Positions 15,918 to 32,596 are shown, counted from the first letter of the stretch. The stretch is DNA of 64,000 nt from an uncultured Candidatus Saccharibacteria bacterium (GCA_964561085.1 CAZLNP010000001.1:75335-139334), one strand, 5' to 3'. Translations and numbers: made by a program. The notes: generated by a model not told the origin, from the letters alone.

Positions 15918-15992
15918 GGCGCTATCGTCTAACGGTTAGGACAGACGGTTTTCATCCGTCAAATCGGAGTTCGATTCTCCGTAGCGCTACCA
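15918..15992 (+). tRNA. tRNA-Glu (anticodon TTC), CCA encoded
   Basis: 7-bp acceptor GGCGCTA/TAGCGCT (G1-U72), D-arm GTCT AACGGTTAGG AC, anticodon stem GACGG/CCGTC with loop TTTTCAT, T-arm CGGAG TTCGATT CTCCG, discriminator A then CCA. Confidence 0.85.
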
Positions 15993-17452
15993 CCTAACAT
16001 TTTATCCCTTTTGGAGATAGGCAAACATTCTTTTTTCCAATTGGTTATTACATTTTTATCACTTAGAGAAAAGTTTTCCACTAAACTTTTCACAAGACGG
16101 CGTCGGGATTCTTCCGACGCTGTTTTGTATGCAATGGTTGGGCTTTTAAGCAGTTTTCCAAGGTTTTCCATTTTCAGCATCGATTCAGCATTTTCAGACT
16201 GTACGCCATTTAATTGTTCAGTATATTCAATTTTTTTGTTTAACAATTTTGACTTCATGGATTGATAATCTTCGCTACTGATACTTTTGTCCAAAAATCG
16301 ATCCATTATATCGTCAAGCTGTTTCTCTACTTTATGAATTTCAAATATCCATTTAGCAGTAAGCTCCCCCTGTTGGCTTTTCAAGTCTTCCCTTAACTGT
16401 CCGATTGCTTTCAAAAACATTACTACTTCTTCATCCGAAAATTCAATACCCTTTAGTTCTTCAAAAAACTGTTCATCTACAAGTTCTTCTAACAAATTAT
16501 ATTTATGTTCTGCGCTGCGGCAGTTGTAGTACTTATAATAAACATTTCTATGTACTTTAGTTGAAGAAATACATCTTAATGGTCTATCGCAGGTAGGACA
16601 ATTAAGCATTCCTTGAAATACATACAACCGTTTTCTTTTATGCTTAAAGCTCTTCTTGTCTAACACTTCCTGAACTTTATCAAATAAAGATTTAGTAATG
16701 ATCGGTTGATGAATACCTTTGAAATCTCCTTTATTAGTCCACCGTACGATTCCGTAGTAAAATGGGTTTCTAAACATTTTATAAAGTGTTTTGTGTTTTA
16801 CCAAACCACCGTCATTATTCCTTAACCCCATTTCTTTTAACTTATCCTGTAAAGGTATAATCCCATACAAACCAGTAGCAAACATTTCGAATGCTTGTTT
16901 TACAAGTCTACTTTGAACAGGGTCAGGTTCTTTGAAACCTTTTTTAGAATCTAAATAACCGATTGGAGCTCTTGATGGAAAAAGTCCTTGTTCTAACATT
17001 CTATCAAATGCTGTATTTACTTTAACCCGCAATCTTTGGCTATAGACTGTTGCCTGCCCCCATAAATCATAAATTCTTGAAAGGTCATCGTCTGATTGAG
17101 TTGTGAGATTTTCAGCAGCAAAGTGAAAGTGATAGCCTTGTTCAATAAGTTTGTAAAAATTTCCAATATCTTGGTAATTCCTTGACGATCTGTCCACGGT
17201 AGCAAAGCAAATTCCAGCTAACTTTTCTTTCTTTAATCTTTGTATTAACATGCCAAACAACTTTCTCCCAGGACGAAAGGAAGATTCTACCCCCTCAAAG
17301 AAGTCAACTATTTCTAACCCTCTCTGTTTTGCATATAGTTCTATTTGTTTCTTTTGAATTTCTGGACTCCAGTTTGTTGCTTGGTCTTTTGAACTGACCC
17401 GTACATAAGCTAAGAATTTATTATTAGATAATTTTTTCATGTTGTCCTTCAT
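15959..17452 (-). CDS. Large serine recombinase (resolvase catalytic domain + recombinase domain + zinc ribbon + coiled coil)
   Basis: AYVRVSSKDQ catalytic serine motif near N-terminus, CPTCDRPLRC...C zinc ribbon, 497 aa; C-terminal codons overlap the tRNA-Glu 3' half. Confidence 0.9.
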   Translation of the reverse strand: MKDNMKKLSNNKFLAYVRVSSKDQATNWSPEIQKKQIELYAKQRGLEIVDFFEGVESSFRPGRKLFGMLIQRLKKEKLAGICFATVDRSSRNYQDIGNFYKLIEQGYHFHFAAENLTTQSDDDLSRIYDLWGQATVYSQRLRVKVNTAFDRMLEQGLFPSRAPIGYLDSKKGFKEPDPVQSRLVKQAFEMFATGLYGIIPLQDKLKEMGLRNNDGGLVKHKTLYKMFRNPFYYGIVRWTNKGDFKGIHQPIITKSLFDKVQEVLDKKSFKHKRKRLYVFQGMLNCPTCDRPLRCISSTKVHRNVYYKYYNCRSAEHKYNLLEELVDEQFFEELKGIEFSDEEVVMFLKAIGQLREDLKSQQGELTAKWIFEIHKVEKQLDDIMDRFLDKSISSEDYQSMKSKLLNKKIEYTEQLNGVQSENAESMLKMENLGKLLKSPTIAYKTASEESRRRLVKSLVENFSLSDKNVITNWKKECLPISKRDKMLGGSATENRTPI

Positions 17453-18176
17453 ATATGTTTCCTTTATATGATATTTTATTTTTATAAATATCGTTAGTTA
17501 ATATTTTTTTAATTGTTGACGGCCACCACCTGTTACCTCCACGCTTTGTTGGTATGCTTCGCAAATTTAGGTATGCAGCAATTTTAGTAAGATTCATTCT
17601 CTTATAGCGTTTTAAGTGAAAGATTTTTCTTACAATATCTGCCTCTGCTTGATTTGTTATCAACTGTCCGTCTTTGCAGTCGTATCCGTAAATTTCTCCT
17701 CCATGCCACCTCCCCTTAGCTGCAGCCGAAGCGCGTCCGTTGGTCAGTCGCATTGTAATCATGGCTCTTTCGAATTCACTAAAAGCACCTATAATTTGCC
17801 TAAACAGTTTACGAGTTGCATCATTACTACCTAAGTCTGGTTCAGTTAGTGAGATTAGCTGTTTATTTAGTTTTATAAACTCTCTTATTAGTCCTTCCTG
17901 GATATAGAGGTCACGGGCTAATCTCGTCAGTGACAAAATTACAACTGCTTTTACTTCGCTATTAACTTCTAAATACTGCATCATTTGTGCCAGCGCTGGC
18001 CTATGTTCCAAACCGCCACTTACACCATCGTCTTTAAACCATTCAACTATTTCTATACCGTTCTTTTTTGCATAATTTGATATTGATTCAACTTGTAATT
18101 CAATGTTGTCATTTTCCGCTTGTAGTGCAGTTGATACTCTGCAATATGCTATCGCTTGCATTTTCGTTCCTTCCAT
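17424..18176 (-). CDS. Serine recombinase, short form (resolvase domain + partial recombinase domain, no zinc ribbon)
   Basis: AIAYCRVSTALQ catalytic motif; 250 aa; 3' end overlaps the start of the 497-aa recombinase by 29 nt. Confidence 0.8.
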   Translation of the reverse strand: MEGTKMQAIAYCRVSTALQAENDNIELQVESISNYAKKNGIEIVEWFKDDGVSGGLEHRPALAQMMQYLEVNSEVKAVVILSLTRLARDLYIQEGLIREFIKLNKQLISLTEPDLGSNDATRKLFRQIIGAFSEFERAMITMRLTNGRASAAAKGRWHGGEIYGYDCKDGQLITNQAEADIVRKIFHLKRYKRMNLTKIAAYLNLRSIPTKRGGNRWWPSTIKKILTNDIYKNKISYKGNIYEGQHEKII

Positions 18177-18609: not shown

Positions 18610-20190
18610 CTAAAATGGTATGTCAGATTCATTTAGTGTATCCAAGGCCGCTTCGTCTGAATCTTCCATGACACCAGAAACAGCATTGACACCACTCTCG
18701 TAAATCTTCGTAAATGTAATCAGTCGTGCGCCGTCCTTATCGCGAGAAACTTTGATTCCGAGCGCCATCAGGTTTGTTGCGACAACTTGCAGTCTACGCC
18801 ATAGCCAATTCGGTGTTTTTGGAAATTCTCTCTGTCTTGTGTCTTGTTTTAGCTTTATTGCCAGTTCTTGAAGCACTAATAGCAAGTCAGTTGGAGTAGC
18901 TTGATAGTGCGTTTTGTTTTCCATGAATGCAATAACAACTTGCGCCACAGGAGAGTCATCAATCGCTTCAGCATTTTGTCTGATTAGGTTTTGAGTTAAC
19001 GCATCTATAAATTCTTCTGCCGTGTGTCCAATCGCAATACTGATAGCACAGCCCCACCGCACAAAATCTGCCATACGGAAGTTGCTTATTTGTTCTGGCA
19101 GTTCCATTCCCGGGTATACTTTAATGGATTTTTGTACTGCTCCAATTATTGCGCCTAAGAGCTGCGGTCGTGCTTGTTCAAACTCTGCCATTAACACACC
19201 TTCTTCTTTATAGTTTTGAGGTCTTTCTAGTTCAATAATTAGTGAACGTTCCAACAAATCAGGTTTACTAACCACAAGATTAATTCCGTTCATGGCAACG
19301 ACACGGCGGAAGCTGTAAATAATATCATCGTCATCTGAATAGAGTTCTCGCTTTGACATACCTTCGCCAGTCACGGTTCTGCATAATAGGTCTGAAAATT
19401 CAGGTTTTATAGGTGATAGATTATCAAGCGGTAAGAAATAATGATGGCTGGCTAACTGCACATACTCTCTGCTGTCGCCATGTGCGGTTAAAGTTTCCAT
19501 TATTGATGGGTCAATTAGCCCACGGAGCAGTTTGAACAAAGTAGTTTTTCTTGACCCTTGCGGTCCGTGAACAACTAATATCGGGTGCGGGAAGTTAGGC
19601 AACACAGACGCTACGAGCCATACAAGCAGTAATAATTTTTGACGTGGTTCTTTCGGAGTAGGAATGAAGTCAAATACTTTTTCTAACTCTGCTCCTGGTA
19701 TAGGTGCAACCTGCAGGCGCTGATGTCCGAATCTGTAAAACAGAATTGGTGCAGGGTCTAGTATTTTCCACTCATCTTTATTTATCAGTACCGCACGACC
19801 ATCACCTAAATCGTAAATTATACCGTTATCAGTTTCAGCAATTCTTACATGTAGCTTTATTTCTTCGCTGTCATGCGTTGCGTGTCCTTCTAGCGTTCTA
19901 ACTGCTGTTTCTATAGTGCCAGACGACACGGCCTTGCCTAATTCATCCCAACCGAGATGCGACAACCATGACTTGAATCCACGCGACCTCAGCTTTAGAG
20001 TCTTATGTCCATTCTCCTCTACAGCTATAAAGCCGTTATCAAACTGGTCATGAAATAGTTTAACGTTTCTGTTCAGTACCAGTTCAACAAGCTGTTCGGT
20101 AAGATTCTTTTCACTATCTGATTCAACTATAGATTCAGCTACAGAATCTTGGGTTTCTTTTTCTATAATTTCGTTTTCTTTGTCTGTCAT
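18610..20190 (-). CDS. Phage/plasmid primase-associated helicase (D5/P4-type P-loop NTPase)
   Basis: Walker A VHGPQGSRKTT about 190 aa from N-terminus, acidic C-terminus; gene order immediately after a primase zinc-finger protein. Confidence 0.6.
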   Translation of the reverse strand: MTDKENEIIEKETQDSVAESIVESDSEKNLTEQLVELVLNRNVKLFHDQFDNGFIAVEENGHKTLKLRSRGFKSWLSHLGWDELGKAVSSGTIETAVRTLEGHATHDSEEIKLHVRIAETDNGIIYDLGDGRAVLINKDEWKILDPAPILFYRFGHQRLQVAPIPGAELEKVFDFIPTPKEPRQKLLLLVWLVASVLPNFPHPILVVHGPQGSRKTTLFKLLRGLIDPSIMETLTAHGDSREYVQLASHHYFLPLDNLSPIKPEFSDLLCRTVTGEGMSKRELYSDDDDIIYSFRRVVAMNGINLVVSKPDLLERSLIIELERPQNYKEEGVLMAEFEQARPQLLGAIIGAVQKSIKVYPGMELPEQISNFRMADFVRWGCAISIAIGHTAEEFIDALTQNLIRQNAEAIDDSPVAQVVIAFMENKTHYQATPTDLLLVLQELAIKLKQDTRQREFPKTPNWLWRRLQVVATNLMALGIKVSRDKDGARLITFTKIYESGVNAVSGVMEDSDEAALDTLNESDIPF

Positions 20191-20193
20191 ATT

Positions 20194-20817
20194 TTATAGT
20201 CCTAGTAAGTACTTGACGGCTTCGGGGAAAGAATAGCCGTGAAGTAACATTATGAATTTAATTGAGTTGCCCCCTTCTTGGCAGCCGAAACACCAACAAG
20301 AATTTGTTTGTGAGTAAACTGTGAATGACGGGCGTTTGTCTTCGTGGAATGGGCATAGCCCTGTGAGATTGTTTCCACTACGCCTTAGTCTGCCGTCGTA
20401 CAAATCAGCTATTGGAATTTGAGTGGCCATTTCTATTTGCTCATCTGTCAATCGTCCTTTAGGCTTCTTGCCACTGGCGACATAAACTTGCCGTCTCAGT
20501 CTTGCTATATGCTTAATTACTTCAAGTAGTTGTAGCCCGTCAGTGTGCTTAACCAATTCTCTGCAAAACCAGTATTCAAAGTCAGTTTTTGTACTGTCAT
20601 ATAATCGTTCCAGTTTCCGCAATATTGATTTCTTGACGGCTTTCTTTACGATTTGCCATTCCTTAATCTTGCTTGGCAGTACAGACTTGATTTCAGGGAA
20701 TATCGATAACAACTCAGCATCTGTATATTTGCGCTTTGAATCCCTATGTTCAGATTCCAGTTCTTCATACATGAGCCACTGCTCATAATCTTTATCGACA
20801 TGACTAGCTTGTGTCAT
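20194..20817 (-). CDS. DnaG-type primase zinc-finger (CHC2) domain protein
   Basis: C-terminal CPFHEDKRPSFTVY...CWCFGCQEGGNSIKF matches the zf-CHC2 consensus; 3-nt gap to the helicase gene. Confidence 0.6.
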   Translation of the reverse strand: MTQASHVDKDYEQWLMYEELESEHRDSKRKYTDAELLSIFPEIKSVLPSKIKEWQIVKKAVKKSILRKLERLYDSTKTDFEYWFCRELVKHTDGLQLLEVIKHIARLRRQVYVASGKKPKGRLTDEQIEMATQIPIADLYDGRLRRSGNNLTGLCPFHEDKRPSFTVYSQTNSCWCFGCQEGGNSIKFIMLLHGYSFPEAVKYLLGL

Positions 20818-21168
20818 CAGTATCTCCTTTCGACTGTTTACAATCGTTATCGAAAATATGAATGACAGCTTCTAAGTAATCTCCGTACTTGTCTAGCACT
20901 TCTTCTATATTCATTTGTTTTCTTTCTGCATAAATGCAAAAAGAGCTTTCTCAAGCAGACAAACAAAACACCCGTTCGGTGATCGTTTATCAACATAAGA
21001 AAGCCCTTCTAGTTTTTACGTATATTCTAGAAGCAGGTGTCGCACCCCCTATACTCAACGGAGCGGTAGGATAGATATACCTCGCTTATCAATGCAGTAC
21101 TGTTTAAAAAGAACTCTTTACTTAATTACTAGGTAATTATAGCAGATTCAAACAACCATGTCAAAAAA

Positions 21169-21501
21169 TTATTTAATAATTTCAAAATCTCTATTGCATT
21201 TAGGGTTAGAGCAGGTGTAGAACTCCGTCAAATTCTTAGAAACAAACCGCATCCCCTGTTTTAAAAGGCCACTCTCATGAAATGGACAATGATAACTTTT
21301 TAGTTCAATTTCAGTATTTAAAGATAAGCTAATTTTCTTGTAAGCAGACTGCTCATCAAAAATTTGTACGGTGAACTCTAAACCACATTTCTCACAAACT
21401 AAATCTAACGCACTATTATCAGTAACTTTATTAAAACGCTTCCGACCCATAGGGTTGCTACATTTTATGCAATAAATTTTCTCTGCTATTTGATTACTCA
21501 T
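21169..21501 (-). CDS. hypothetical double zinc-ribbon protein (110 aa)
   Basis: Four CxxC pairs: CIKC...CEKC and CPFH...CSNPKC. Confidence 0.4.
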   Translation of the reverse strand: MSNQIAEKIYCIKCSNPMGRKRFNKVTDNSALDLVCEKCGLEFTVQIFDEQSAYKKISLSLNTEIELKSYHCPFHESGLLKQGMRFVSKNLTEFYTCSNPKCNRDFEIIK

Positions 21502-21793
21502 ATATATATTGTAGTATTAGTTAACTTCTCTAGACGTGATTTCTTACATTCGGTTAGTACCGAGTGTCCAAGACCCTAAAGCAAGTGACTATAATATAAC
21601 AAAATAACCCCTCTCAGAATAGGCATATAAATACCTATAACCAATACAAAAAGTGTTCTCTGAGGCCATTCTAGGACTTCATGGAATGCTTCAAAGTGCC
21701 TTGTTTATAGTACTTTTAGCTGTAATGGTATATAATTAACCTACAATTCTGCCTAAACCTTCAAGTAATTGAAGGCATGGCGCAATACTAAAC

Positions 21794-21922
21794 CCACTAC
21801 TACATGAAGGCGGCTATCCGTCTTGCTTACCATGTAGTAGTGGTTATCCTTCCGAAAGGTTGGATAAGGCAAGCGGGTAGCCCCTTTTGTTTTTTAAAAT
21901 AATTAAATCCACTACTACAATG
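21794..21922 (+). repeat. iteron-like element: three copies of CCACTACTACA(A)TG (two forming a 13-bp inverted repeat) plus TTATCC/GGATAA hairpin and T-tract
   Basis: Copies at 21794-21806, 21831-21843 (inverted) and 21909-21922 (overlapping the start codon of the downstream ORF). Confidence 0.5.
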
Positions 21923-22477
21923 AAAAAATGCCCATACTGCGCTGAAGAAATGCAGGACGAAGCAGTCGTTTGCAAGCACTGCAAAAAAGATATTCCCAAA
22001 CAAGACAAGCACTTACCAACGAATGTACCCAACTTTAATCCCACATTAAATAATAGAGTTTTAATTGCTATAGTAATTATTATTGCATTGTTATGCCTTT
22101 ACGCCATAATGCGAATGAAGCAAGGCAATACTTCCGTGCCGGCAACCCCGGCAGCAACTACAAATTCAATAAGCAACCAGTCGCTAGAACACAAACTGGC
22201 TTCTATACATTCTAACGACACAGCTCCACCGCAAGAACTGGTTAATCAGTTTAAAGACCAGTTATATAAACTAAGTTTAGTATGTCCGAAAAATACCGAA
22301 CAACAACTAAGCGATTATATCGTGAAAGCACATCAACTAATCACTGAAAAGCGTCCTGTATTTACACTTCTTGAAGTTAGTCAGGGATTTTATACTAGTA
22401 TTCCAAAAACAAATACCACTACAGACTGCGTTGATTACATGACAATATACATGGCTTTAGTCCTAAAAGGTTACTAA
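21920..22477 (+). CDS. hypothetical zinc-ribbon + single-TM membrane protein
   Basis: [23 protein letters not shown] then hydrophobic [17 protein letters not shown]; start re-set from the track TTG to ATG 21920. Confidence 0.45.
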
Positions 22478-23010
22478 ACCACTAAAGTAGTATTTTTCTG
22501 CTGATTGTATTCAGCCAACTGTGCCTTCAAATTTTTAACCACTTTTCGTTTTTCTTCAATAGACACATTTGCGTTCAGGTTATGATTATGCGTAATTATA
22601 CTAGCTTCGCCAAACTCGGTACGCTGAATGTCACAGATTACTGAAAATGCACTAGCTATTGTAGCGAGTTCTTTGGGTGCTAGAATATTTTCACTTTTAG
22701 CATACTCGCCAATCATATCTAGTAAATTGCTAGTCATTTCAATACGCTTGTGTTTAGCTGTGGTCATCTGCTCCATAGAGGAAACCACCACGTCCGCATA
22801 GTTCTGTTTTTCGTCTTGGTATACTTGCGCCTTTTCTAGTTCTTGCTTGATTGATTTTTTAAACTTGCTCCAGTTGTGGCGGGAAGCATAAAGTTGCAAC
22901 GCACTGACGGCAATTTGATTTGCATAATCTTTATGAATGTCTATTAAGGATTCACCTTTAATGTAGCGTTCAAATATTTTAGAGTATTCTGCTTTAGGAA
23001 TTCGTGCCAT
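22474..23010 (-). CDS. hypothetical protein (start re-set to MARIPKAEY...), last gene of five-gene cassette
   Basis: ORF from track; overlaps stop of downstream ORF by 4 nt; N-terminal region looks helix-turn-helix-like. Confidence 0.4.
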
Positions 23011-23067
23011 AAATTTATAACTTACTATATATCTAAAATATATCAACCTCTGCAGTAAGTACACATC

Positions 23068-23676
23068 TTATTCTATGCCATGTTTATTCTTCCAATCCTT
23101 GAAAAGCTGCTCTGTTCGCTGATGTTGCTCATCTGTTAGTTCCCCTACAATTCCAGACTGTTCTTCTAGGTCAATATTTTTAGAAAGTGTTATATAATCT
23201 TTAACCATTTTTGCCTTAGTTTCTAAATCAAACAGACTATCACCGTTATAAGATAATTCTTTAATTCTGCCGTGGCTTAAACTATCTCTTATGCTTTTTA
23301 TTTTCCATAAGAATTTAGTATGTGCGGTTTTGCCCCTGACTTTCTCTACAAAGAAGATTCTATCGCCGAACGAAATTTCATTCGGTTTATACGCAGGGTG
23401 AGTAGGATCAACTTTCTCCATTTTCAAACCTATATTAGTTCTGATAAAATTGTCCAAATCTTCTGTTGAATTACCCAACATTTCATTAACTACATTAGCC
23501 GCTTGGGTTAAGGTGGAATTTAAATCCTGTTCAACGGTATGACAAAACCAAAAAGCAAATTCAACAGTTAATCTTTCTTCTTTTGAAATCTTAAGCATCG
23601 TATCAGGAATTAAGTTAGCAAAATCCTGACTGCTGTATTGCTTCAATAAATTTTCTAAATCAATTTCTTCAGTCAT
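23068..23676 (-). CDS. HEPN-like protein (Rx4H motif)
   Basis: KIKSIRDSLSHGRIKE contains R-x4-H; 202 aa; start overlaps the upstream DUF4238-like gene by 8 nt. Confidence 0.4.
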   Translation of the reverse strand: MTEEIDLENLLKQYSSQDFANLIPDTMLKISKEERLTVEFAFWFCHTVEQDLNSTLTQAANVVNEMLGNSTEDLDNFIRTNIGLKMEKVDPTHPAYKPNEISFGDRIFFVEKVRGKTAHTKFLWKIKSIRDSLSHGRIKELSYNGDSLFDLETKAKMVKDYITLSKNIDLEEQSGIVGELTDEQHQRTEQLFKDWKNKHGIE

Positions 23677-24547
23677 GCTTAATTTCCTTTGCTAATTTTT
23701 CTAACACTTCTTTATCATTATGGAATAGGTATCTATCACTACGTGATGCTAGTGCTAAATTGATTTCATCTACACTCTTTCCACTAATGGTCGCTATTAA
23801 ATTTTCTTCGTGATCATCTAGCATTAACAAGCATACCTTTGAAGTTATAGGAAATACCTTTATTACTCCTCTAACCAGAAACCCCATAGCGGGCGGCTTC
23901 TTCCCTTCAATAAAAGTCATTACAAACGGCGAACTTGTAGTGATAAAAGAATAATTTTCTGGAGCAAAGCAGTATCGCCATTCTAGGTGCAAAAAATTAG
24001 CTGCGAATTGCACACCTGAATTAACAACCATTTCAAGGTGCTGGTTCTTAAACTTTGTATCCGAATCAAGCAGCTCAGTTAAATTGTCATGTAGTTCCCT
24101 CGCAGAGATACCTGGTGTATCCGATGGCAAGAAATCTGGAGTCTTAACTTCATGTTTTTCCTCCGGAATATCCCATTCTTTCATAATTTCCATGAGTTGA
24201 TTCATTGAATCTCTATTCTGATTCTCATAACTAGGTACTCGCACAAATTGATAAGCAATAAATAGCGCTAATTTATCTTTTTCCAATTGTGTCGGGCGTT
24301 CTTTGTTCTCAATTTTCTCTATTATTGGTTTGATATCGCTTTCCATCTGAGCAAAGTATCTTTCAATGTCATTATTTTTCTCACCTTCATAAACCAAAGA
24401 GTAGTAATTACTAATAACCGCCACGTTTTCAAGTGACGGTGAATAGTATTTATTTTCTAACTTATCGTAGACCCAAACCTTTTCGTTATCGGCAAAACCT
24501 CTTAAATAGGTTTGAGGTACATAGTGGTGTCGTTTAGGTTCGCTCAT
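23669..24547 (-). CDS. DUF4238-like protein
   Basis: N-terminal RHHYVPQTYLRGF and C-terminal FITTSSPFVM match what I recall of the DUF4238 family profile; 292 aa, the typical size. Confidence 0.45.
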   Translation of the reverse strand: MSEPKRHHYVPQTYLRGFADNEKVWVYDKLENKYYSPSLENVAVISNYYSLVYEGEKNNDIERYFAQMESDIKPIIEKIENKERPTQLEKDKLALFIAYQFVRVPSYENQNRDSMNQLMEIMKEWDIPEEKHEVKTPDFLPSDTPGISARELHDNLTELLDSDTKFKNQHLEMVVNSGVQFAANFLHLEWRYCFAPENYSFITTSSPFVMTFIEGKKPPAMGFLVRGVIKVFPITSKVCLLMLDDHEENLIATISGKSVDEINLALASRSDRYLFHNDKEVLEKLAKEIKHD

Positions 24548-24548
24548 T

Positions 24549-25328
24549 TTATATTTTTATCATACGAAAAATTATAAACTCCGGTATTTTATTTAGTCTA
24601 ATATAATCTCTTTCCGAGATTTGCTTCATTCCTTCCAAAGGCTTAGGTTCTAAAAAACGCTCTACCAGAAACCCCGCATTATTTGCTTCATTAATCATCT
24701 CACTAATAGGCTTATGCCAAGTAGTAACATCGGCAAGTGCACCTAAACCGTCAGCCAACTTTCTACGGTCCATATAATTACCAATAATTTCAACGCTCTT
24801 AGGCTGCTTTTGTTTAATAATAGCCAACTGCCTAATCTGCTGGTTATCAGTATCCTCTGTAACGACCATTGCAGTTCTTACTGGATGAGCGCAGGAAAAT
24901 TGAAAATAAGAGTTAGGCTTCAGCACACGATAGGCTTCTTGAAAAACTTTAGTCCAATCTTCGATGTAATGTATTGCGAGGCTCGAATAAACAAAATCAA
25001 AACTATTATCCGGAAAAATTAATTGTTCCATGTTCATAACCTCAAACTTACAGTCAGTATAACTGGCTTCAGCAATTTTAATTAACTCAGGAGATATATC
25101 TATACCCACTGATTCATTTGCTCCTTGTTGTTTCAAGTAAATGCTATCTTCCCCACTCCCACACCCGAGACTTAGTACTCGCTTACCTTTTAAGTCAGGC
25201 AACAAGCTATACATAGCCGGCTTTTCGTAATACGCATGGTATATAGAATCATTTGGGTTGCGCACATGAGCTGTATAACCTACGGCATTATCGTTGTACC
25301 AATTTTTAGTTTTATCGTCAGTAGACAT
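24549..25328 (-). CDS. Class I SAM-dependent methyltransferase (not a DNA N6/C5 MTase by motifs)
   Basis: VLSLGCGSGED motif I, acidic residue after beta2, 259 aa; no DPPY/NPPF or PC motifs. Confidence 0.75.
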   Translation of the reverse strand: MSTDDKTKNWYNDNAVGYTAHVRNPNDSIYHAYYEKPAMYSLLPDLKGKRVLSLGCGSGEDSIYLKQQGANESVGIDISPELIKIAEASYTDCKFEVMNMEQLIFPDNSFDFVYSSLAIHYIEDWTKVFQEAYRVLKPNSYFQFSCAHPVRTAMVVTEDTDNQQIRQLAIIKQKQPKSVEIIGNYMDRRKLADGLGALADVTTWHKPISEMINEANNAGFLVERFLEPKPLEGMKQISERDYIRLNKIPEFIIFRMIKI

Positions 25329-25380
25329 ATTAATTTATTAATAATGTAGATTTAAATTATTTGTCAGTTAATTATCACTC

Positions 25381-26208
25381 TTAAAATAATTCAAACTTGG
25401 TAATTAGATCCTTTGGTATATAAAACTCTGATGAGAATCGTTTGCGAATGCTTTTTGCTTTGGACTTATTCCGTTCAATTATAAGTTTGATTTTCTTCTT
25501 TTCTGTATCGATAGACTGTAAATAAGATTCTAGCGTAGGCATGTCTGGACTTTTTTTATAGCACTCCTCTATTTCAATCGCAAATTTAGGTGAAAAACTA
25601 TTAGTAATAATGTAGTCGCCTATAATGGTCTTATAATTATTAGTGGGAAATAATTTTTTACCAGTTGCTACTTGAACAAACTCATTTTGAATAGTCCTTT
25701 TAACTGCTTTGTCCTGTTCTGAATCTGAACCGATAAGACAAAAAGCCAAAGTTTCATTGCTTTTGAAAGCAGCATAATAATCCAGTTCACTTTTTTTACG
25801 ATTTTTGCCTAAGTAAATCCATATATAATGGAAATTATAGAAAAATACTGGGTTATTTTTCTGCGACTCATGTAGCGGTAAAACCACATTTTTCCATTGC
25901 AAATCGTTGTGAGTCAATGAAGTAAGATGATATGTAATACTTTCTCCTTCTGAAAGATTAATCGTTTTGCCGGTATGCATTTGGGAGCTTACTTTCATTC
26001 GCCATTCCTCATTAAGAAAATATACCTTCCCTCTTTTTATTACAGATTCTGAAGCAACTAGCGAGCGCAAAGCTACATATACTGCTTGAATAGTATAGGT
26101 AGAAGATTCGCTTTTTAATTGTTCCATTAATTCAGTAACGGTTAGCTCAGAACTAATTAAAAGCCTAATTAGTTTATCTTCTAACGTTTCCTTTTGAGTG
26201 AATATCAT
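25381..26208 (-). CDS. hypothetical protein with N-terminal winged-helix-like region
   Basis: ORF from track; first gene of tightly packed minus-strand cassette. Confidence 0.35.
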   Translation of the reverse strand: MIFTQKETLEDKLIRLLISSELTVTELMEQLKSESSTYTIQAVYVALRSLVASESVIKRGKVYFLNEEWRMKVSSQMHTGKTINLSEGESITYHLTSLTHNDLQWKNVVLPLHESQKNNPVFFYNFHYIWIYLGKNRKKSELDYYAAFKSNETLAFCLIGSDSEQDKAVKRTIQNEFVQVATGKKLFPTNNYKTIIGDYIITNSFSPKFAIEIEECYKKSPDMPTLESYLQSIDTEKKKIKLIIERNKSKAKSIRKRFSSEFYIPKDLITKFELF

Positions 26209-26277
26209 GATAATAGTATAACTTAAAAGGCTCAGTTTTTAAAATATTCTTTTAAAAACCTATTATTTCACCACATT

Positions 26278-27003
26278 TTGGTTGAAAAGTCAATAGTTTT
26301 GAGCTATACTGCGCTCATGATAAATAACGAAGTCACAACTCAATACAATAATTTCCACACTGACTACAGTATTCAACTATCCGAACAGGATGAAATTAGC
26401 AATGCTATGTTCCATAAAGCAATCGATTTTGAATTAACTGATAAAAAGCTTTTGGACATAGGCTGTGGGGATGGAAGCGCATTAAAAATGCTAAGTGGTA
26501 AAGGCGCTAGTGTCTATGGAATAGACCCCTCTACGGAATTCTTAAAAAAGGCGGAAATTAATAATCCTACTGGGATATTCAGACAGGGTGTTGGAGAAGC
26601 ACTCCCCTTTGAGGCTAATTACTTCGATGTAGTAGTCTCGAAATGGGCAATGCAAACATCTCCTGATGTGCCTGGAATATTGTCCGAAGCAGCTCGAGTT
26701 CTTAAGCCTGGTGGTATGTTCGTATTTTTAACCAAGCATCCTATTCAACAGTGGCTTGAAAAAATTAGAGATTACGGGCATGGATCTAATTACTACTCAC
26801 AGCAAATTGTTACCTCTAACATCTATGAGGGTACTATTAAGCTAAAAGAACCAACTCATACAATTGGGGAATATCTTAACGCAGACTTCTTTAAGAACTT
26901 TGAGGTTCTTGATTACAAAGAAGAGACTCAATTCCCTGCTTCTGAACAATTCAATAATGATATTTACCCCACCTTCCTTTTGATTAAGGCTCGTAAGAAA
27001 TAA
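26278..27003 (+). CDS. Class I SAM-dependent methyltransferase (UbiE/COQ5-like)
   Basis: LLDIGCGDGS motif I and VLKPGGMFVF; true start may be the ATG near 26316 (MINNEV). Confidence 0.75.
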   Translation: MVEKSIVLSYTALMINNEVTTQYNNFHTDYSIQLSEQDEISNAMFHKAIDFELTDKKLLDIGCGDGSALKMLSGKGASVYGIDPSTEFLKKAEINNPTGIFRQGVGEALPFEANYFDVVVSKWAMQTSPDVPGILSEAARVLKPGGMFVFLTKHPIQQWLEKIRDYGHGSNYYSQQIVTSNIYEGTIKLKEPTHTIGEYLNADFFKNFEVLDYKEETQFPASEQFNNDIYPTFLLIKARKK

Positions 27004-27007
27004 TCAC

Positions 27008-27541
27008 ATGAAAATTGCAATATTTAGTTCGTGGCTTCCAGAAGTCAATGAGTATAACCAAAAACTTGCGATACAAATTGCTGAATATTTAGCCGATAAA
27101 GATATCACGGTTGTCACTGGTGGATGTAGCGGTATTCCCGCAGCAGTCGTTGAAGCAGCGCACAATAAAGGAGTAAAAACTATCGGATACTTCCCACATA
27201 AAAGTAAGGAAGAATACCATGACCGCCAGCACGAAAAAAATATTCATGCTTTAGACTATTATTCAACTGCTCATTTTATTTCCGGTTTTACAGCTCGTAG
27301 CTTAGAAATGATCAAAAATGTAGATGCGGCTATAGTCTTGAACGGTAGGATTGGCACCCTATCAGAATTTGGAATTGCAATCGAGGAAGGTTTACCATTA
27401 GCAGTGATTGAGGGCACTGGCGGTATTACTGATGAATTACGAAATCTTGTAAAAGTAGCTCAAAAAGAATTCCCTAATAACGAGGTAATATTCGAACAAG
27501 ACTACAAAAAAGCTATTGATATGCTAATATCAAACCATTAA
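27008..27541 (+). CDS. LOG/TIGR00725-like Rossmann-fold nucleotide-binding protein (SLOG superfamily)
   Basis: VVTGGCSGIPAAVVEAA glycine-rich motif and ...GRIGTLSEF... typical of LOG-like phosphoribohydrolase fold. Confidence 0.6.
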   Translation: MKIAIFSSWLPEVNEYNQKLAIQIAEYLADKDITVVTGGCSGIPAAVVEAAHNKGVKTIGYFPHKSKEEYHDRQHEKNIHALDYYSTAHFISGFTARSLEMIKNVDAAIVLNGRIGTLSEFGIAIEEGLPLAVIEGTGGITDELRNLVKVAQKEFPNNEVIFEQDYKKAIDMLISNH

Positions 27542-27544
27542 TAC

Positions 27545-27576
27545 AAAACGGTCCAATTCAGGACCGTTTTTGTTTT
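27545..27576. terminator. bidirectional intrinsic terminator (LOG-like / HAD convergent pair)
   Basis: AAAACGGTCC-AATTCA-GGACCGTTTT perfect hairpin then TTGTTTT; overlaps last codons of the HAD gene. Confidence 0.6.
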
Positions 27577-28241
27577 GATTCAAAAATTTCAGTTAACTCT
27601 GCCAAAGAAGATATAAACTTGTCTGGCTCCGCACTATCCGGAATAGGAATGATTTCACGTTTATACAATATCGTGCTCAAGCCTAACAATTTGGCTTGAA
27701 GTAATCCCCTATACCAATTATCATCTATTAAAACGCTTTCAGATGGCAATGCACCCGAATCTTTCAATATTTCTAAATAAAAATTCGGGTCGGGTTTTTG
27801 CAGTCCAATGTGTCCTGACATTTTTTGATGGGAAAAATATTGCAACAAACCAGCATCTTCTAATACATTACCAGCTTTAACATTTTGGTTGGCCATAATT
27901 CCCAAGTTAAAAGATTTGCTCAATCCTGAAAGCACCTCCATCGCTTCAGGACGAACTTTCGATAAACCATAATAATCTACATTACATTCGTTGTTGTATA
28001 CTAACTCAGCTTCTTCTTTAAGTTTAGAGTCCTTAAATAGATAATGTAAGGCATTAATCCTAACGCTCCCAGGTTGCTGAGATGCAAACAGCCAAGCTTC
28101 GTAGATATTTGCCATAGTTATATTAGGCAAATACCGCTGTGCTACATTGAACAAAATTTCTTGTCGTAATGTCTCTGGCTTCGTATCATCTAGGATAACG
28201 CCTCCCATATCAAAGAATAGCCATTTGATGTTTTCTTTCAT
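27558..28241 (-). CDS. HAD-superfamily hydrolase
   Basis: FDMGGVI (motif I DxG), ...LIDDN (motif IV) and GHIGLQKPD region. Confidence 0.75.
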   Translation of the reverse strand: MKENIKWLFFDMGGVILDDTKPETLRQEILFNVAQRYLPNITMANIYEAWLFASQQPGSVRINALHYLFKDSKLKEEAELVYNNECNVDYYGLSKVRPEAMEVLSGLSKSFNLGIMANQNVKAGNVLEDAGLLQYFSHQKMSGHIGLQKPDPNFYLEILKDSGALPSESVLIDDNWYRGLLQAKLLGLSTILYKREIIPIPDSAEPDKFISSLAELTEIFESKQKRS

Positions 28242-28319: not shown

Positions 28320-28420
28320 ATCCACATGGAATCACCAGAGGTCATCGTGGTAACTCTAGGATAATCTTAGAACTCACCACTATGATTGAGTTTTGGATTT
28401 TACCGAAAAGTTTTGAAAAC
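28320..28420. repeat. intergenic repeat element, copy A (shares three blocks with copy B at 30530-30760)
   Basis: CCACATGGAATCACC / GGTCATCGTGGTAACTCTAGGA / GAGTTTTGGATTTTACCGAAAAGTTTTGAAAAC recur, partly permuted, at 30532-30557, 30686-30720 and 30720-30737. Confidence 0.5.
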
Positions 28421-29184
28421 TATATCTTCTCCCAAATACCTTTAAACATCTCGCGTAGGTTTTGCGCCATAACTGCATCGTGAGTCTCAACCATATAATG
28501 CGGGTGTTGATTTGTAACTATAAACATTACATAATCTCCCAAGACCACATGCGTTGCGGTAAAGTCTACAGTTTTATCCCAATATTTTGTTTGACGTCTA
28601 TCGTCAGATACTCTATTCGCAACTTCTTTTTCAACTTGTTTGTTATTTGTAAATACTCTTAAACCAAAATTTTCCGGAAAGATTTCCCAATGATACTCAA
28701 CCCAATCTTTATATTCTTCCAATAGAGAAGTGTCCTGGAATCCCCACCAATTTTTATCATCTAATTTCTTAGCACTTTCTATCCAAACTGGTAATTGCTT
28801 TTTAAGAAAATCAGCTAGCTGAGGTTCATCTATAAAACGAATTTTAGGCACTGAATACTGCTTAGACTTAGGTAACGCCTGGAGTTCTAAGATTGCCTGT
28901 TCTATGGCAGTCTTTTTTTGTTCTAATTCCTGCTCTTGAGATTTATATAGAGTACGAAGCTCTTCAGGTGGCAAAGCAGTGTAATAAGTAGTAGTTCCCC
29001 CTAGGTCTTCTTGAATAACCCCCTTTTTTACAAGTTCCTTTGAAACACCATATACAGTGGTTCTATTGATTTTAGAAATACGAGACACATCAGCGGCTGA
29101 TAGTTTGCCATTCTCTTGAATACATAGATATACCGAGATTTCTTTATCAGTGAAGCCTAATTGTTGTAAATATTCATTTAACAT
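28420..29184 (-). CDS. TrmB-family transcriptional regulator
   Basis: N-terminal LGFTDKEISVYLCIQENGKLSAADVSRISKINRTTVYGVSKELVKKGVI winged-HTH characteristic of TrmB, plus C-terminal sensing domain. Confidence 0.75.
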   Translation of the reverse strand: MLNEYLQQLGFTDKEISVYLCIQENGKLSAADVSRISKINRTTVYGVSKELVKKGVIQEDLGGTTTYYTALPPEELRTLYKSQEQELEQKKTAIEQAILELQALPKSKQYSVPKIRFIDEPQLADFLKKQLPVWIESAKKLDDKNWWGFQDTSLLEEYKDWVEYHWEIFPENFGLRVFTNNKQVEKEVANRVSDDRRQTKYWDKTVDFTATHVVLGDYVMFIVTNQHPHYMVETHDAVMAQNLREMFKGIWEKI

Positions 29185-30529: not shown

Positions 30530-30760
30530 CGGGGTCATCTAGTGAACTCTAGGAGGTGTCTGAGTTTCCATATAAACTTCTCTTACTAAAGCCAAATAGT
30601 TTTTCCACCTGTACCTATAGGACCTACCACGCAAATTCAAAACACCCTCACGGGTGTTTTTGCGTAGGTTTTCATTGGCTATGCGTGAGTTTTCAGTTTG
30701 ACCTAAAAGTTTTGAAAACCACATGGTATCCATCGTGATTTGAAAACTTTATTAGCTAGG
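30530..30760. repeat. intergenic composite repeat, copy B (blocks shared with copy A and copy C) including a hairpin AAAACACCC-TCAC-GGGTGTTTT
   Basis: 30579-30629 TCTCTTACTA..TTTTCCACCTGTACCTATAGGACCTACCA is ~90% identical to 31682-31731. Other blocks match copy A. Track ORFs 30539..30733 and 30556..30738 lie entirely inside the repeat. Confidence 0.55.
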
Positions 30761-30782: not shown

Positions 30783-31667
30783 ATGAGTGAATTTAATAAA
30801 AACATACCAGGTACAGAGTTCAGTAATATCCCAGCACAGAGGGAAAATATAGAAAAACCATCTCCGGAATCCATTGCTTTAGAAAAACTAAAAAGCTCAG
30901 GCGAGATATTGTCCTATTACAAACAAAGCCGATCTACTTATATCGACATGAATGGTTGGCAAACTGATTTATCTGACGAAGAGGTTATTAACCATTTTAA
31001 GGAATCCCCTACTTTATTCCATAGCACATTTTTAACTAAAGAAAATAAAATAGAGCGGATAGGCCAGCAAGGATTAACAACCGAATCCTTCCGCGAACGC
31101 GCTGGTATTAAACCAGAACCACCCCTTGCAGAGGTGGTACAAGAAGCGAATGAGTATACAGAAGACGACTTTTGGAATGACATGATGGAAATGGAATATG
31201 ATATGGATAGTGCTTTCAAAAAAAGTCCTGAATACAATAAAAAGTATATATCCTTTTCATACTTACCTTGGTGGAATGAGCGTGAGATTATTGAAGATGC
31301 CCCGAATTCCGAATTTGACTTTGATGATAATGGCAAGATTAAGGATTTGAAAATTAGCATAGCACTTAATCCAAAATCTGGCCGTAGAATAATCGAAGAA
31401 AATCTAGAAAGCTTGAAAGATAATGATAGCGAGATAGCAAAGTTAGGCCGATTAACTTCCTTCTGCGAAGTCCTCGAACCAATCCGAACGGCACCCAGAG
31501 ATTTTGCTGCAATATTCCTATTAATCAAAGGTTACGAAGATATTGACGATCCAAAGAAAAAAGAATTATTTGTAAAATTTATTGAAAGATTAGGAGGCAA
31601 AAGTCAGTTGCCTATCTTTGATTACTACGGTAATTTGCTTTGGCCCCACCAGAATAAAGCTAACTAA
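30783..31667 (+). CDS. hypothetical acidic protein (294 aa) flanked by direct repeat copies B and C
   Basis: ORF from track; no motif assigned. Confidence 0.45.
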   Translation: MSEFNKNIPGTEFSNIPAQRENIEKPSPESIALEKLKSSGEILSYYKQSRSTYIDMNGWQTDLSDEEVINHFKESPTLFHSTFLTKENKIERIGQQGLTTESFRERAGIKPEPPLAEVVQEANEYTEDDFWNDMMEMEYDMDSAFKKSPEYNKKYISFSYLPWWNEREIIEDAPNSEFDFDDNGKIKDLKISIALNPKSGRRIIEENLESLKDNDSEIAKLGRLTSFCEVLEPIRTAPRDFAAIFLLIKGYEDIDDPKKKELFVKFIERLGGKSQLPIFDYYGNLLWPHQNKAN

Positions 31668-31681
31668 TGATATAATAAATC

Positions 31682-31770
31682 TCTCTTACTAGCGCCATAA
31701 AGGTTTTCCACCTGTATCTATAGGACCTACCAACAGTCCGCAGTATCGAGAGACCCAAATGGGTCTTTTA
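31682..31770. repeat. intergenic repeat copy C plus terminator-like hairpin AGACCC-AAAT-GGGTCT-TTT
   Basis: See copy B; the repeat is followed about 20 nt later by a stem-loop and T-run. Confidence 0.5.
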
Positions 31771-31786
31771 AAATAATTTATTATAT

Positions 31787-32596
31787 ATGAAAAATCGCAT
31801 CATTTTAATAAGCATAATATCCATTGCTTTATTAGCCGTTAGCTGCAGCGAGCAAGCACCGTCTGTTGATAATGCCAATACAAACTTACCTACATCAAAT
31901 TTACAAGAAGCAGATAATTCAAATAATTCTCAGCAAACCGATAATAATTTTTACGACAAAATTAACCAGAATACTAGCACTTGGAAAACATATTCCAATA
32001 ATTCTTTAGCGCTATCGTTTCAATATCCTAATGAACTAGGTGAAGTAAAAGAGGGCGCGGGTTCAAATGGTTATTCTCATGATTTTTCATTCACAAAAGA
32101 AAACCAAAGCTACAGCTATACTGCCATTCTTCCTTTTTCCCGAGATTCTATAAATAGCTATAACAACCAAATCAAAATTGAAAATATGGGAGAACGAGGC
32201 CCAGGTGAAACAAACGATTTTCCTGTAGAAATAGCAACTACTATAATTACTACAAAGCCAGTCGATTATAATTGCTCAAAAGATTTTGGACTTGATGTAA
32301 CTGCTAATGAATTTTGTAGCATTGTAAATATTAACGACACCAAGATTATCAGATCCATAACCAACGGCGATGGGCCTAATGGTAGAGATGCATCGTCTCT
32401 TGCATATTTATTCTATAAAGATGGTGCTTGGGTATCGTTTGCAAAAACTTTTTATGTATATCGATTTAGCAATGACGAAAGTTCTTACCCCAATTCCATG
32501 CTGAGCAAAGAATTAAATGCAAAAACGCGCAATGAAAAAGTAAAAGCTGAATTGGATATATTCGATAAGATGTTAAAAACAGTAAGTCTGGAATAA
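31787..32596 (+). CDS. hypothetical lipoprotein
   Basis: MKNRIILISIISIALLAVSC: signal peptide with lipobox-like LAVSC. Confidence 0.55.
   Translation: MKNRIILISIISIALLAVSCSEQAPSVDNANTNLPTSNLQEADNSNNSQQTDNNFYDKINQNTSTWKTYSNNSLALSFQYPNELGEVKEGAGSNGYSHDFSFTKENQSYSYTAILPFSRDSINSYNNQIKIENMGERGPGETNDFPVEIATTIITTKPVDYNCSKDFGLDVTANEFCSIVNINDTKIIRSITNGDGPNGRDASSLAYLFYKDGAWVSFAKTFYVYRFSNDESSYPNSMLSKELNAKTRNEKVKAELDIFDKMLKTVSLE

Follow-up and report, generated by a model that had tools for sequence, protein, structure and literature searches.

Candidate single-gene defence functions for a DUF4238 gene and a neighbouring solo HEPN gene in a Saccharibacteria mobile-element setting

HEPN-MNT systems carry an RX4HXY motif with an AMPylated Tyr, which fits the title of PDB entry 7ae2 ('H107A-Y109F'). 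The HEPN protein HepS ('HEPN Solo') of prophage Gifsy-1 is a partner-less abortive-infection protein of roughly 210 aa and a tRNA anticodon nuclease (PMC13043305; PDB 9oij/9oik). DUF4238, from a P2 prophage hotspot, was validated by Rousset et al. 2022 as a single-gene anti-phage system; it suffices alone for defence in E. coli and protects against T7 (PMC9122126). Here we compare these systems with a locus in a 64,000-nt window of DNA from an uncultured Candidatus Saccharibacteria bacterium. A first-pass annotation of this window had proposed that five tightly packed genes form an undescribed defence or toxin module with a DUF4238-HEPN pair at its centre.

The five minus-strand ORFs are present where they had been placed, and all of them show coding-type evolution (Table 1). 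In comparisons with relatives at 84–93% nucleotide identity, third codon positions carry most substitutions in every ORF. By codon position 1/2/3, the counts are 14/4/55 for the DUF4238 gene, 6/9/37 for the HEPN gene, 10/5/35 for ORF5 and 15/10/41 for the methyltransferase gene; for the 275-aa ORF they are 8/2/50 (against L034). Starting from the 275-aa side, the ORFs are separated by 52 nt, 1 nt, an 8-nt overlap and 57 nt. The description of all gaps as under 55 nt holds for the first three junctions; the last slightly exceeds it at 57 nt with the ATG of ORF5, but measures 3 nt with a GTG start at 23064.

Table 1 Features of the locus and its surroundings (positions in the window)
Feature	Positions	Strand	Evidence or remark
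tRNA-Glu(TTC), probable integration landmark	15918..15992	+	ARAGORN; Rfam tRNA 60.6 bits
Pair of serine recombinase genes that overlap (15959-17452, 17424-18176)	15959..18176	-	Resolvase, Recombinase, Zn_ribbon_recom domains
526-aa P-loop protein and CHC2 primase zinc-finger protein	18610..20817	-	Zn_ribbon_DnaG 1.9e-22; PHROG DNA primase families
ORF5, 178 aa from ATG (196 aa from GTG at 23064)	22474..23010	-	ORF, coding-type substitutions
Stand-alone HEPN-fold protein, 202 aa	23068..23676	-	AF2 fold and family conservation; small uncharacterised family
Rx4H codons, R130-D-S-L-S-H135, then G136-R137	23272..23289	-	Invariant R130, H135
DUF4238/HEPN overlap, ATGACTGA	23669..23676	-	8 nt, DUF4238 stop to HEPN start
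DUF4238 protein, 292 aa	23669..24547	-	PF14022 full length; family includes single-gene anti-phage Rst_DUF4238
DUF4238 N-terminal motif PKRHHYVP, residues 4-11	24515..24538	-	Conserved in 13 DUF4238 sequences
Class I SAM-dependent methyltransferase, UbiE/BioC-like, 259 aa	24549..25328	-	Methyltransf_11, Methyltransf_25
275-aa ORF, candidate N-terminal wHTH	25381..26208	-	ORF and codon-position substitutions

The central overlap can be read directly in the sequence, and AGGAA, a Shine-Dalgarno-like element, lies 9 nt 5' of the HEPN ATG. This arrangement had been taken as the sign of an obligate pair. An 8-nt overlap indicates co-transcription or translational coupling, not dependence, and operons commonly show such close packing on one strand, which in itself is not beyond chance. 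Given the 1-nt gap and the overlap, the methyltransferase, DUF4238 and HEPN genes would be expressed as one unit, and the latter two are probably co-transcribed and translationally coupled. A promoter and terminator scan of the locus gave signals no higher than shuffled expectation.

The label 'DUF4238-like' passed an HMM check, with PF14022 matched over its full length (profile 1–281 of 281, E 8.7e-44, 150.5 bits against a cutoff of 27). The protein belongs to a known single-gene anti-phage family, and the five genes are not a conserved new multi-gene system; the word 'undescribed' does not apply to DUF4238, which is already a validated single-gene system (PMC9122126) with a PADLOC model of its own. 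That model, DUF4238-Pers, matches distantly (E 3.3e-10, 37.9 bits, profile 1–261 of 309), as does phrog_29785 among the PHROGs (E 4.6e-9). Gp11 of phage pro483 aligns in tblastn at 24% identity over 85% of the query (E 4e-8), and in this P2-like phage the homologue stands alone between replication and portal genes. The present protein and Rst_DUF4238/DUF4238-Pers thus share full-length PF14022, similar size, a mobile-element setting and a family without a conserved partner gene, and the PADLOC and PHROG models that match derive from a 309-aa phage protein. They differ in that the present protein is ~24% identical to the P2-like phage protein, its gene is probably coupled translationally to a HEPN gene and lies directly behind a methyltransferase gene, its host is not an enterobacterium, and its activity is putative.

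Across 13 DUF4238 sequences, P4, H8 and P11 of the N-terminal region are invariant and E3, K5, R6 and H7 nearly so. FITTSSPFVM, previously reported as the C-terminus, is internal (residues 201–210). An AF2 model built from a 13-sequence alignment reached a pLDDT of 73.6, and the predicted fold had no meaningful structural match in the PDB. Scans of viral contigs for the DUF4238 family found none.

The R-x4-H motif seen in the first pass, SIRDSLSHGR, occupies residues 128–137 of the 202-aa protein and is well supported. The AF2 model (pLDDT 93.8) shows the all-alpha HEPN fold, and R130 and H135, together with R137, E49 and Y143, are invariant in a 37-sequence family alignment of ~30% mean identity. 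On both grounds it is a true member of the HEPN fold. The sole Pfam family to match, PF18739 (HEPN_Apea), scores 22.4 bits against a gathering cutoff of 24.4 and spans the Rx4H region (residues 78–164, profile 32–127). The present protein differs in this from Apea-like HEPN proteins, and only 5 of the 37 family members match HEPN_Apea at E<0.01, so that the existing Pfam model does not cover this family. It is also rare, with 71 clusters among 1.84 billion representatives. Searches with tblastn against phage and plasmid collections gave no match to the protein, and scans of viral contigs found no family member.

One alternative is that the 202-aa protein is a non-defensive HEPN fold, for instance an enzyme that processes RNA or a regulator of the MtlR type, in a cassette of miscellaneous accessory metabolism. 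We consider this very unlikely: the Arg, the His and the second Arg are invariant in a family of ~30% identity, an argument for a catalytic role; the rarity, patchy distribution and variable contexts of the family are typical of defence or selfish genes and not of housekeeping genes; and the gene is directly coupled to a gene of a known defence family. In size (~200 aa), single HEPN domain and canonical Rx4H the protein resembles HepS; as with HepS, no partner or inhibitor gene is conserved beside it, and it is associated with a mobile element. The likeness is one of organisation only, as a profile search against the PDB returned HepS at E 0.37 (13.5 bits), over the motif region alone.

In structural comparison, the 202-aa protein matched the toxins of HEPN-MNT systems most closely (7ae2, 5yep, 8xdj). 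Together with the position of the gene on or beside a mobile element, and with HicAB toxin-antitoxin modules near two other HEPN-family loci, these matches would fit the toxin of an addiction module keeping the integrative element stable, with ORF5, an unrecognised small gene or an RNA as antitoxin. Several observations speak against it. No NTP_transf_2 (MNT) match was found in the cassette or the flanking ORFs, and RDSLSHGR has no Tyr two residues past the His, that position being an invariant Arg in the 37 sequences. Compared with HEPN-MNT toxins (SO_3166/SO_3165, PDB 5yep; 7ae2), which have an adjacent MNT nucleotidyltransferase, the present protein is also longer by ~60 residues and has additional helices at both its N- and C-terminus. 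The missing MNT gene and Tyr led us to reject HEPN-MNT toxin-antitoxin. A search of positions 21000–27500 found no tandem repeats, Rfam gave no relevant match, including any antitoxin RNA, and a type III (RNA antitoxin) AbiF/ToxIN-like Abi was discarded, the repeat RNA gene beside the toxin being absent. Moreover, no ORF5 homologue lies beside any other HEPN-family member sampled, and no small ORF is conserved next to members of the family. An addiction module accordingly has little probability in our view.

To assess conservation of the proposed pair, HEPN loci were collected from metagenomes with a 9-sequence subset of the divergent 37-sequence alignment. DUF4238 HMMs found no match in any of 14 distinct HEPN-family loci, eight of which extended 2.8 kb or more upstream and several of which were short contigs. 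Conversely, the HEPN-family HMM drew a blank in the 16 other DUF4238 loci, and phage pro483 carries no gene of this family. The neighbours of DUF4238 in these 16 loci and pro483 are unrelated, as for a single-gene system; for the high-GC loci they were judged by HMM searches and by scanning ten adjoining ORFs with Pfam. The DUF4238 sample of 17 loci is tiny beside the whole family. All-versus-all BLASTP of the neighbours at 15 HEPN loci revealed no recurring partner, with only HicA and trigger factor repeated, at two loci each. HEPN-family members sit in variable or mobile settings: one is flanked by serine recombinases and accompanied by Prim-Pol, GmrSD and a HATPase_c_3 protein; neighbours of others include HicAB, Bro-N, Schlafen/AlbA_2, DUF2779 and a weak HNH match. 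The cassette arrangement recurs only in near-identical relatives (84–100% nucleotide identity) and is kept in every one seen. A conserved DUF4238-HEPN pair, an idea to be given up if the two never co-occurred in other genomes, thus fails in this sample.

These data also bear on a narrower form of the earlier idea, a two-component system restricted to this clade, in which DUF4238 would be sensor, regulator or antitoxin and the coupled HEPN protein the RNase effector. The 8-nt overlap with its Shine-Dalgarno-like element favours it, and DUF4238 may have an effector-less sensor role. As the pair is kept in every close relative and would be expressed as one unit, a functional link in this lineage is possible. 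Against this, the two families are apart outside relatives of 84–100% identity, HEPN-family members have no conserved neighbour, and each family occurs alone elsewhere, DUF4238 defending E. coli by itself (PMC9122126). We regard such a system as unlikely.

The remaining three genes were no better conserved as partners. Homologues of the methyltransferase, the 275-aa ORF and ORF5 were absent from the 14 HEPN loci, the 16 other DUF4238 loci and pro483. The 275-aa ORF, seen only in relatives of >90% identity, had no match in Pfam, NCBIfam, PHROG, PADLOC or the PDB, and its N-terminal 81 aa gave a faint ArsR HTH_5 match (E 0.041). ORF5 is conserved in relatives L003 and L033 with a coding-type substitution pattern; neither the full protein nor its N-terminal fragment, at lax thresholds as well, matched a family or structure in Pfam, NCBIfam, PHROGs, PADLOC or the PDB. 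The methyltransferase matched Methyltransf_11 (6.6e-25) and Methyltransf_25 (1.5e-22), and every NCBIfam match was far under its cutoff. It had been called a generic class I enzyme without DNA-methyltransferase motifs, and this was confirmed: N6_N4_Mtase scored 18 bits against a cutoff of 26.7, and the translation contains no (D/N/S)PP(Y/F). A restriction-modification reading was dropped on these grounds.

A single novel defence system of five genes, in which a regulator, a modifying methyltransferase, a sensor and an effector would be joined by an accessory gene, draws on the packing of the genes on one strand and on a generic methyltransferase-domain similarity to PADLOC mad2, with nothing more specific. 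The mad2 match is limited to the shared SAM-binding core, and a MADS-like reading was set aside. In addition, a divergent neighbouring methyltransferase (26278-27003), 30% identical to that of the cassette, belongs to a different gene set, and in the loci sampled elsewhere the other genes of the cassette accompany no DUF4238 or HEPN homologue. We consider a five-gene system extremely improbable. The methyltransferase and the 275-aa ORF are not conserved partners of DUF4238 or HEPN in the loci sampled; it is more plausible to group them with the methyltransferase, SLOG and HAD genes next door.

The proposal that the genes lie inside an integrative element was partly upheld. Serine recombinases, primase-like genes and a tRNA adjoin the cassette; the 3' end of a recombinase ORF overlaps tRNA-Glu(TTC), and the order of the replication-type genes is unchanged in a relative (L033). 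Element borders were not found, no convincing att-type direct repeats delimiting the element having been detected, and cargo status is consequently read from adjacency alone. The defence flavour ascribed to the region was sustained.

Taken together, positions 22474-26208 are probably a lineage-specific stack of independent cargo genes that holds two single-gene defence candidates, and not one system; we hold this with moderate confidence. On this view a serine-recombinase integrative element sits next to tRNA-Glu, the accessory stretch lies beside its recombinase and replication genes, and DUF4238 and HEPN would be two candidate anti-phage or abortive-infection modules, each of a single gene and acting independently in vivo. 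The DUF4238 protein is a distant homologue of the T7-blocking P2-hotspot DUF4238, with a predicted fold lacking a solved relative. By analogy with HepS, the HEPN protein may oligomerise, pairing Rx4H motifs into one RNase site, and may be held inactive in uninfected cells; an infection cue would then lead it to cleave tRNA or mRNA and arrest growth. As expected of the HEPN superfamily, such RNase activity would be independent of metal. A bolder proposal joins two parts: in this lineage DUF4238 and the solo HEPN are welded into a coupled two-part immune module, in which DUF4238 might, for example, sense infection and then release or activate the HEPN nuclease; independently, the 71-cluster HEPN family would be a new class of self-contained abortive-infection nucleases with its own trigger. 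This proposal seems to us quite unlikely to hold.

Our results remove a false lead, as the five-gene 'system' is not conserved and is not to be pursued as a unit. They bring to light a small, uncharacterised family of solo HEPN proteins that fold well and share an invariant E...R-x4-H-x-R...Y signature, a cheap candidate, given the HepS precedent, for a partner-less abortive-infection nuclease. The natural DUF4238-HEPN expression fusion lets one ask whether DUF4238 needs or tolerates an effector, and a two-part DUF4238-HEPN module, if true, would provide the first mechanistic handle on DUF4238.

The five minus-strand ORFs at 22474-26208 that the first-pass annotation had proposed as an undescribed defence or toxin module were recovered as described. 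Reading the sequence showed that the 275-aa ORF and the methyltransferase gene are 52 nt apart, that 1 nt separates the latter from the DUF4238 gene, and that the DUF4238 gene overlaps the 202-aa ORF by 8 nt (ATGACTGA). The packing claimed, with gaps under 55 nt, was confirmed except for the last gap, as the ATG of the 178-aa ORF5 lies 57 nt past the preceding gene (3 nt with an upstream GTG start). Compared with the contigs of close relatives (84-93% nucleotide identity), most substitutions in the cassette genes fell at third codon positions (positions 1/2/3: DUF4238 14/4/55, HEPN 6/9/37, ORF5 10/5/35), and all five ORFs are real genes.

Features in and around the cassette
Feature	Position	Strand	Details
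Giant ORF, 1760 aa	10066-15348	-	Multiple fibronectin-III, AIR9-type Ig, SASA esterase domains
tRNA-Glu	15918-15992
Two serine recombinase genes	15918-18176 region		Past tRNA-Glu; 29-nt mutual overlap
P-loop protein; CHC2 primase zinc-finger protein			After serine recombinase genes
LOOT RNA (Rfam RF03000)	21750-21882	+	Full-length; 50.3 bits vs gathering score 46.4; E 4e-7
Zinc-ribbon/membrane ORF	21887-22477	+	Converges on ORF5
ORF5, 178 aa	22474-23010	-
HEPN, 202 aa	23068-23676	-
DUF4238, 292 aa	23669-24547	-
Methyltransferase, 259 aa	24549-25328	-
275-aa ORF	25381-26208	-
Class I methyltransferase	26278-27003	+	Second gene set
SLOG/LOG-like LDcluster4 protein	27008-27541	+	Second gene set; 1.7e-20
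YjjG-type HAD nucleotidase	27558-28241	-	Second gene set
TrmB-family regulator	28420-29184	-	Second gene set
58-nt direct repeat	30572-30629; 31675-31732		86% identity
Two ORFs, no Pfam match	30783-31667; 31787-32596		Each downstream of a 58-nt repeat
Giant ORF, 3653 aa	52907-63868	-

The 202-aa protein scored 22.4 bits against Pfam HEPN_Apea, below the 24.4 cutoff. In a full HMMER search against 1.84 billion cluster representatives, the family proved small (71 clusters, members of about 160-240 aa). Alignment of 37 sequences, about 30% identical on average, showed E49, R130, H135, R137 and Y143 to be invariant and the consensus LWKLNDIRNDISHNRI corresponded to the canonical R(N/D)xxxH HEPN signature, and the AlphaFold2 model from this alignment was all-alpha (pLDDT 93.8, pTM 0.86). 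The HEPN call is thus right at the level of fold and motif. Such a solo HEPN would be a latent RNase, with an infection cue leading to translation arrest.

A 47%-identical homologue sits between serine recombinase genes, with Prim-Pol, GmrSD and an HATPase_c_3 protein nearby. Neighbours of other members include HicAB, Bro-N, Schlafen/AlbA_2, DUF2779 and a weak HNH match. A few members are located among housekeeping genes, and searches of phage, plasmid and viral-contig collections gave no match to the family. A HEPN-fold protein with a non-defensive role is improbable in our estimate. A HEPN toxin-antitoxin addiction module appears equally doubtful. The HEPN-MNT toxin was rejected: an MNT gene is absent from the cassette, and an invariant Arg occupies H+2, where HEPN-MNT systems have Tyr. 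A type III system was also rejected, because neither tandem repeats nor a relevant RNA match were found. Separately, HicAB pairs lie within ~1-2 kb of family members at two unrelated loci (L043/L044/L045, 2177-3102; L030, 1879-2470), and L043-45 also have, some 1.6 kb upstream, an MNT-like NTP_transf_2 gene that is an orphan. At another locus (L026), the ORF directly upstream of the family member (276-557, +) contains a second R-x4-H-like motif, 'KLRNILSH', and may represent a tandem HEPN or a fragmentary gene.

The 292-aa protein was verified as a full-length DUF4238 (PF14022, 150.5 bits, E 8.7e-44), and it also matched the PADLOC DUF4238-Pers model (3.3e-10) and phrog_29785. Conserved residues comprise an N-terminal PKRHH-x-VP block, E62, Q100, R103, P207 and N263; FITTSSPFVM, previously taken for the C-terminus, spans residues 201-210. 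The predicted model (pLDDT 73.6) had no meaningful match in the PDB. A DUF4238 protein of the P2-like phage pro483 aligned at 24% identity over 85% coverage, and its gene stands alone between replication and portal genes. Rousset et al. showed that a single DUF4238 protein from a P2 prophage hotspot, when cloned, conferred strong protection against T7, its molecular function being unknown (PMC9122126). With this activity published, 'undescribed' does not apply to DUF4238. The window protein would likewise act in defence.

We then compared the surroundings of both families. DUF4238 HMMs matched none of 14 distinct HEPN-family loci, close relatives left out (L001/L002, L022/L023, L024-L031, L036, L037/L038, L040-L042, L043-L045), 8 of which extended 2.8 kb or more upstream. 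Conversely, HEPN-family HMMs matched nothing among 16 DUF4238 loci (14 distant ones and the two closest homologues, at 54% and 51% identity). The downstream genes of these two homologues, compared pair by pair, gave no match either, and a Pfam scan of ten ORFs adjacent to DUF4238 homologues found no HEPN family. The arrangement was common only to L003, L007, L033, L034 and L035 (84-100% nucleotide identity), which represent one element in populations that are closely related. The first-pass annotation had held that a pair never co-occurring elsewhere would speak against it, and in the sampled loci the pair did not co-occur outside these relatives. DUF4238 plus HEPN is thus not a conserved unit. 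A lineage-specific DUF4238-HEPN two-component module, a reading kept alive by the 8-nt overlap, we regard as unlikely. We favour, with moderate confidence, two independent single-gene defence candidates, stacked and co-expressed. The genes, their domains, the fold, the conserved motif and the lack of co-occurrence are shown by the analysis; the defence and RNase activities and the independence of the two proteins in vivo are inferred from it.

A true five-gene system is very improbable. By phmmer, the methyltransferase, the 275-aa protein and ORF5 were found in near-identical contigs only, and when the genes around 15 HEPN loci were compared all-against-all by BLASTP, none recurred beyond HEPN genes, HicA and trigger factor (the last two at two loci each). 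The methyltransferase is a generic class I SAM enzyme (Methyltransf_11, 6.6e-25) that matched no DNA-MTase family above the cutoff and lacks a (D/N/S)PP(Y/F) motif, as proposed; a PADLOC 'mad2' match was dismissed, since it extends over the common SAM-binding core alone. The enzyme shares 30% identity with the divergently encoded methyltransferase of the second gene set. The 275-aa protein had no match in Pfam, NCBIfam, PHROGs, PADLOC or PDB, apart from a faint ArsR HTH_5 match in its N-terminal 81 residues (E 0.041), which leaves the wHTH proposed for it no more than putative. This protein and the cassette methyltransferase probably go together with the second gene set and its methyltransferase, SLOG and HAD genes, a set that points to modification of nucleotides or small molecules. 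SLOG domains occur in defence sensors too. ORF5 had no informative match (Pfam, NCBIfam, PHROGs, PDB) and is assigned to neither the defence candidates nor this set.

The tRNA-Glu, serine recombinase, P-loop and primase genes form an integrative-element backbone, colinear in the close relative L033, and GC stays low (0.33-0.39) between roughly 16 and 29 kb. The first recombinase gene runs with its 3' end into the tRNA-Glu on the opposite strand. No att-type direct repeat and no genome without the insertion were found to mark the element borders, so placement 'on a mobile element' is reduced to adjacency to its backbone. Elsewhere in the window, the LOOT RNA lies directly upstream of the zinc-ribbon/membrane ORF, and a literature search gave nothing useful on its function. 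The 58-nt repeats may represent a promoter or leader common to paralogous genes, and the 1760-aa ORF is read as a surface protein because of its domains.

Collectively, the original observation was accurate and the HEPN and DUF4238 identities stand, while the conserved system does not. The cassette is not a categorically new system: it adds a new and distant DUF4238 protein to a defence family already known, adjoining a protein from a small HEPN family that is uncharacterised. Experiments on the solo-HEPN family and on the natural coupling of DUF4238 with HEPN would be reasonable but are not urgent.
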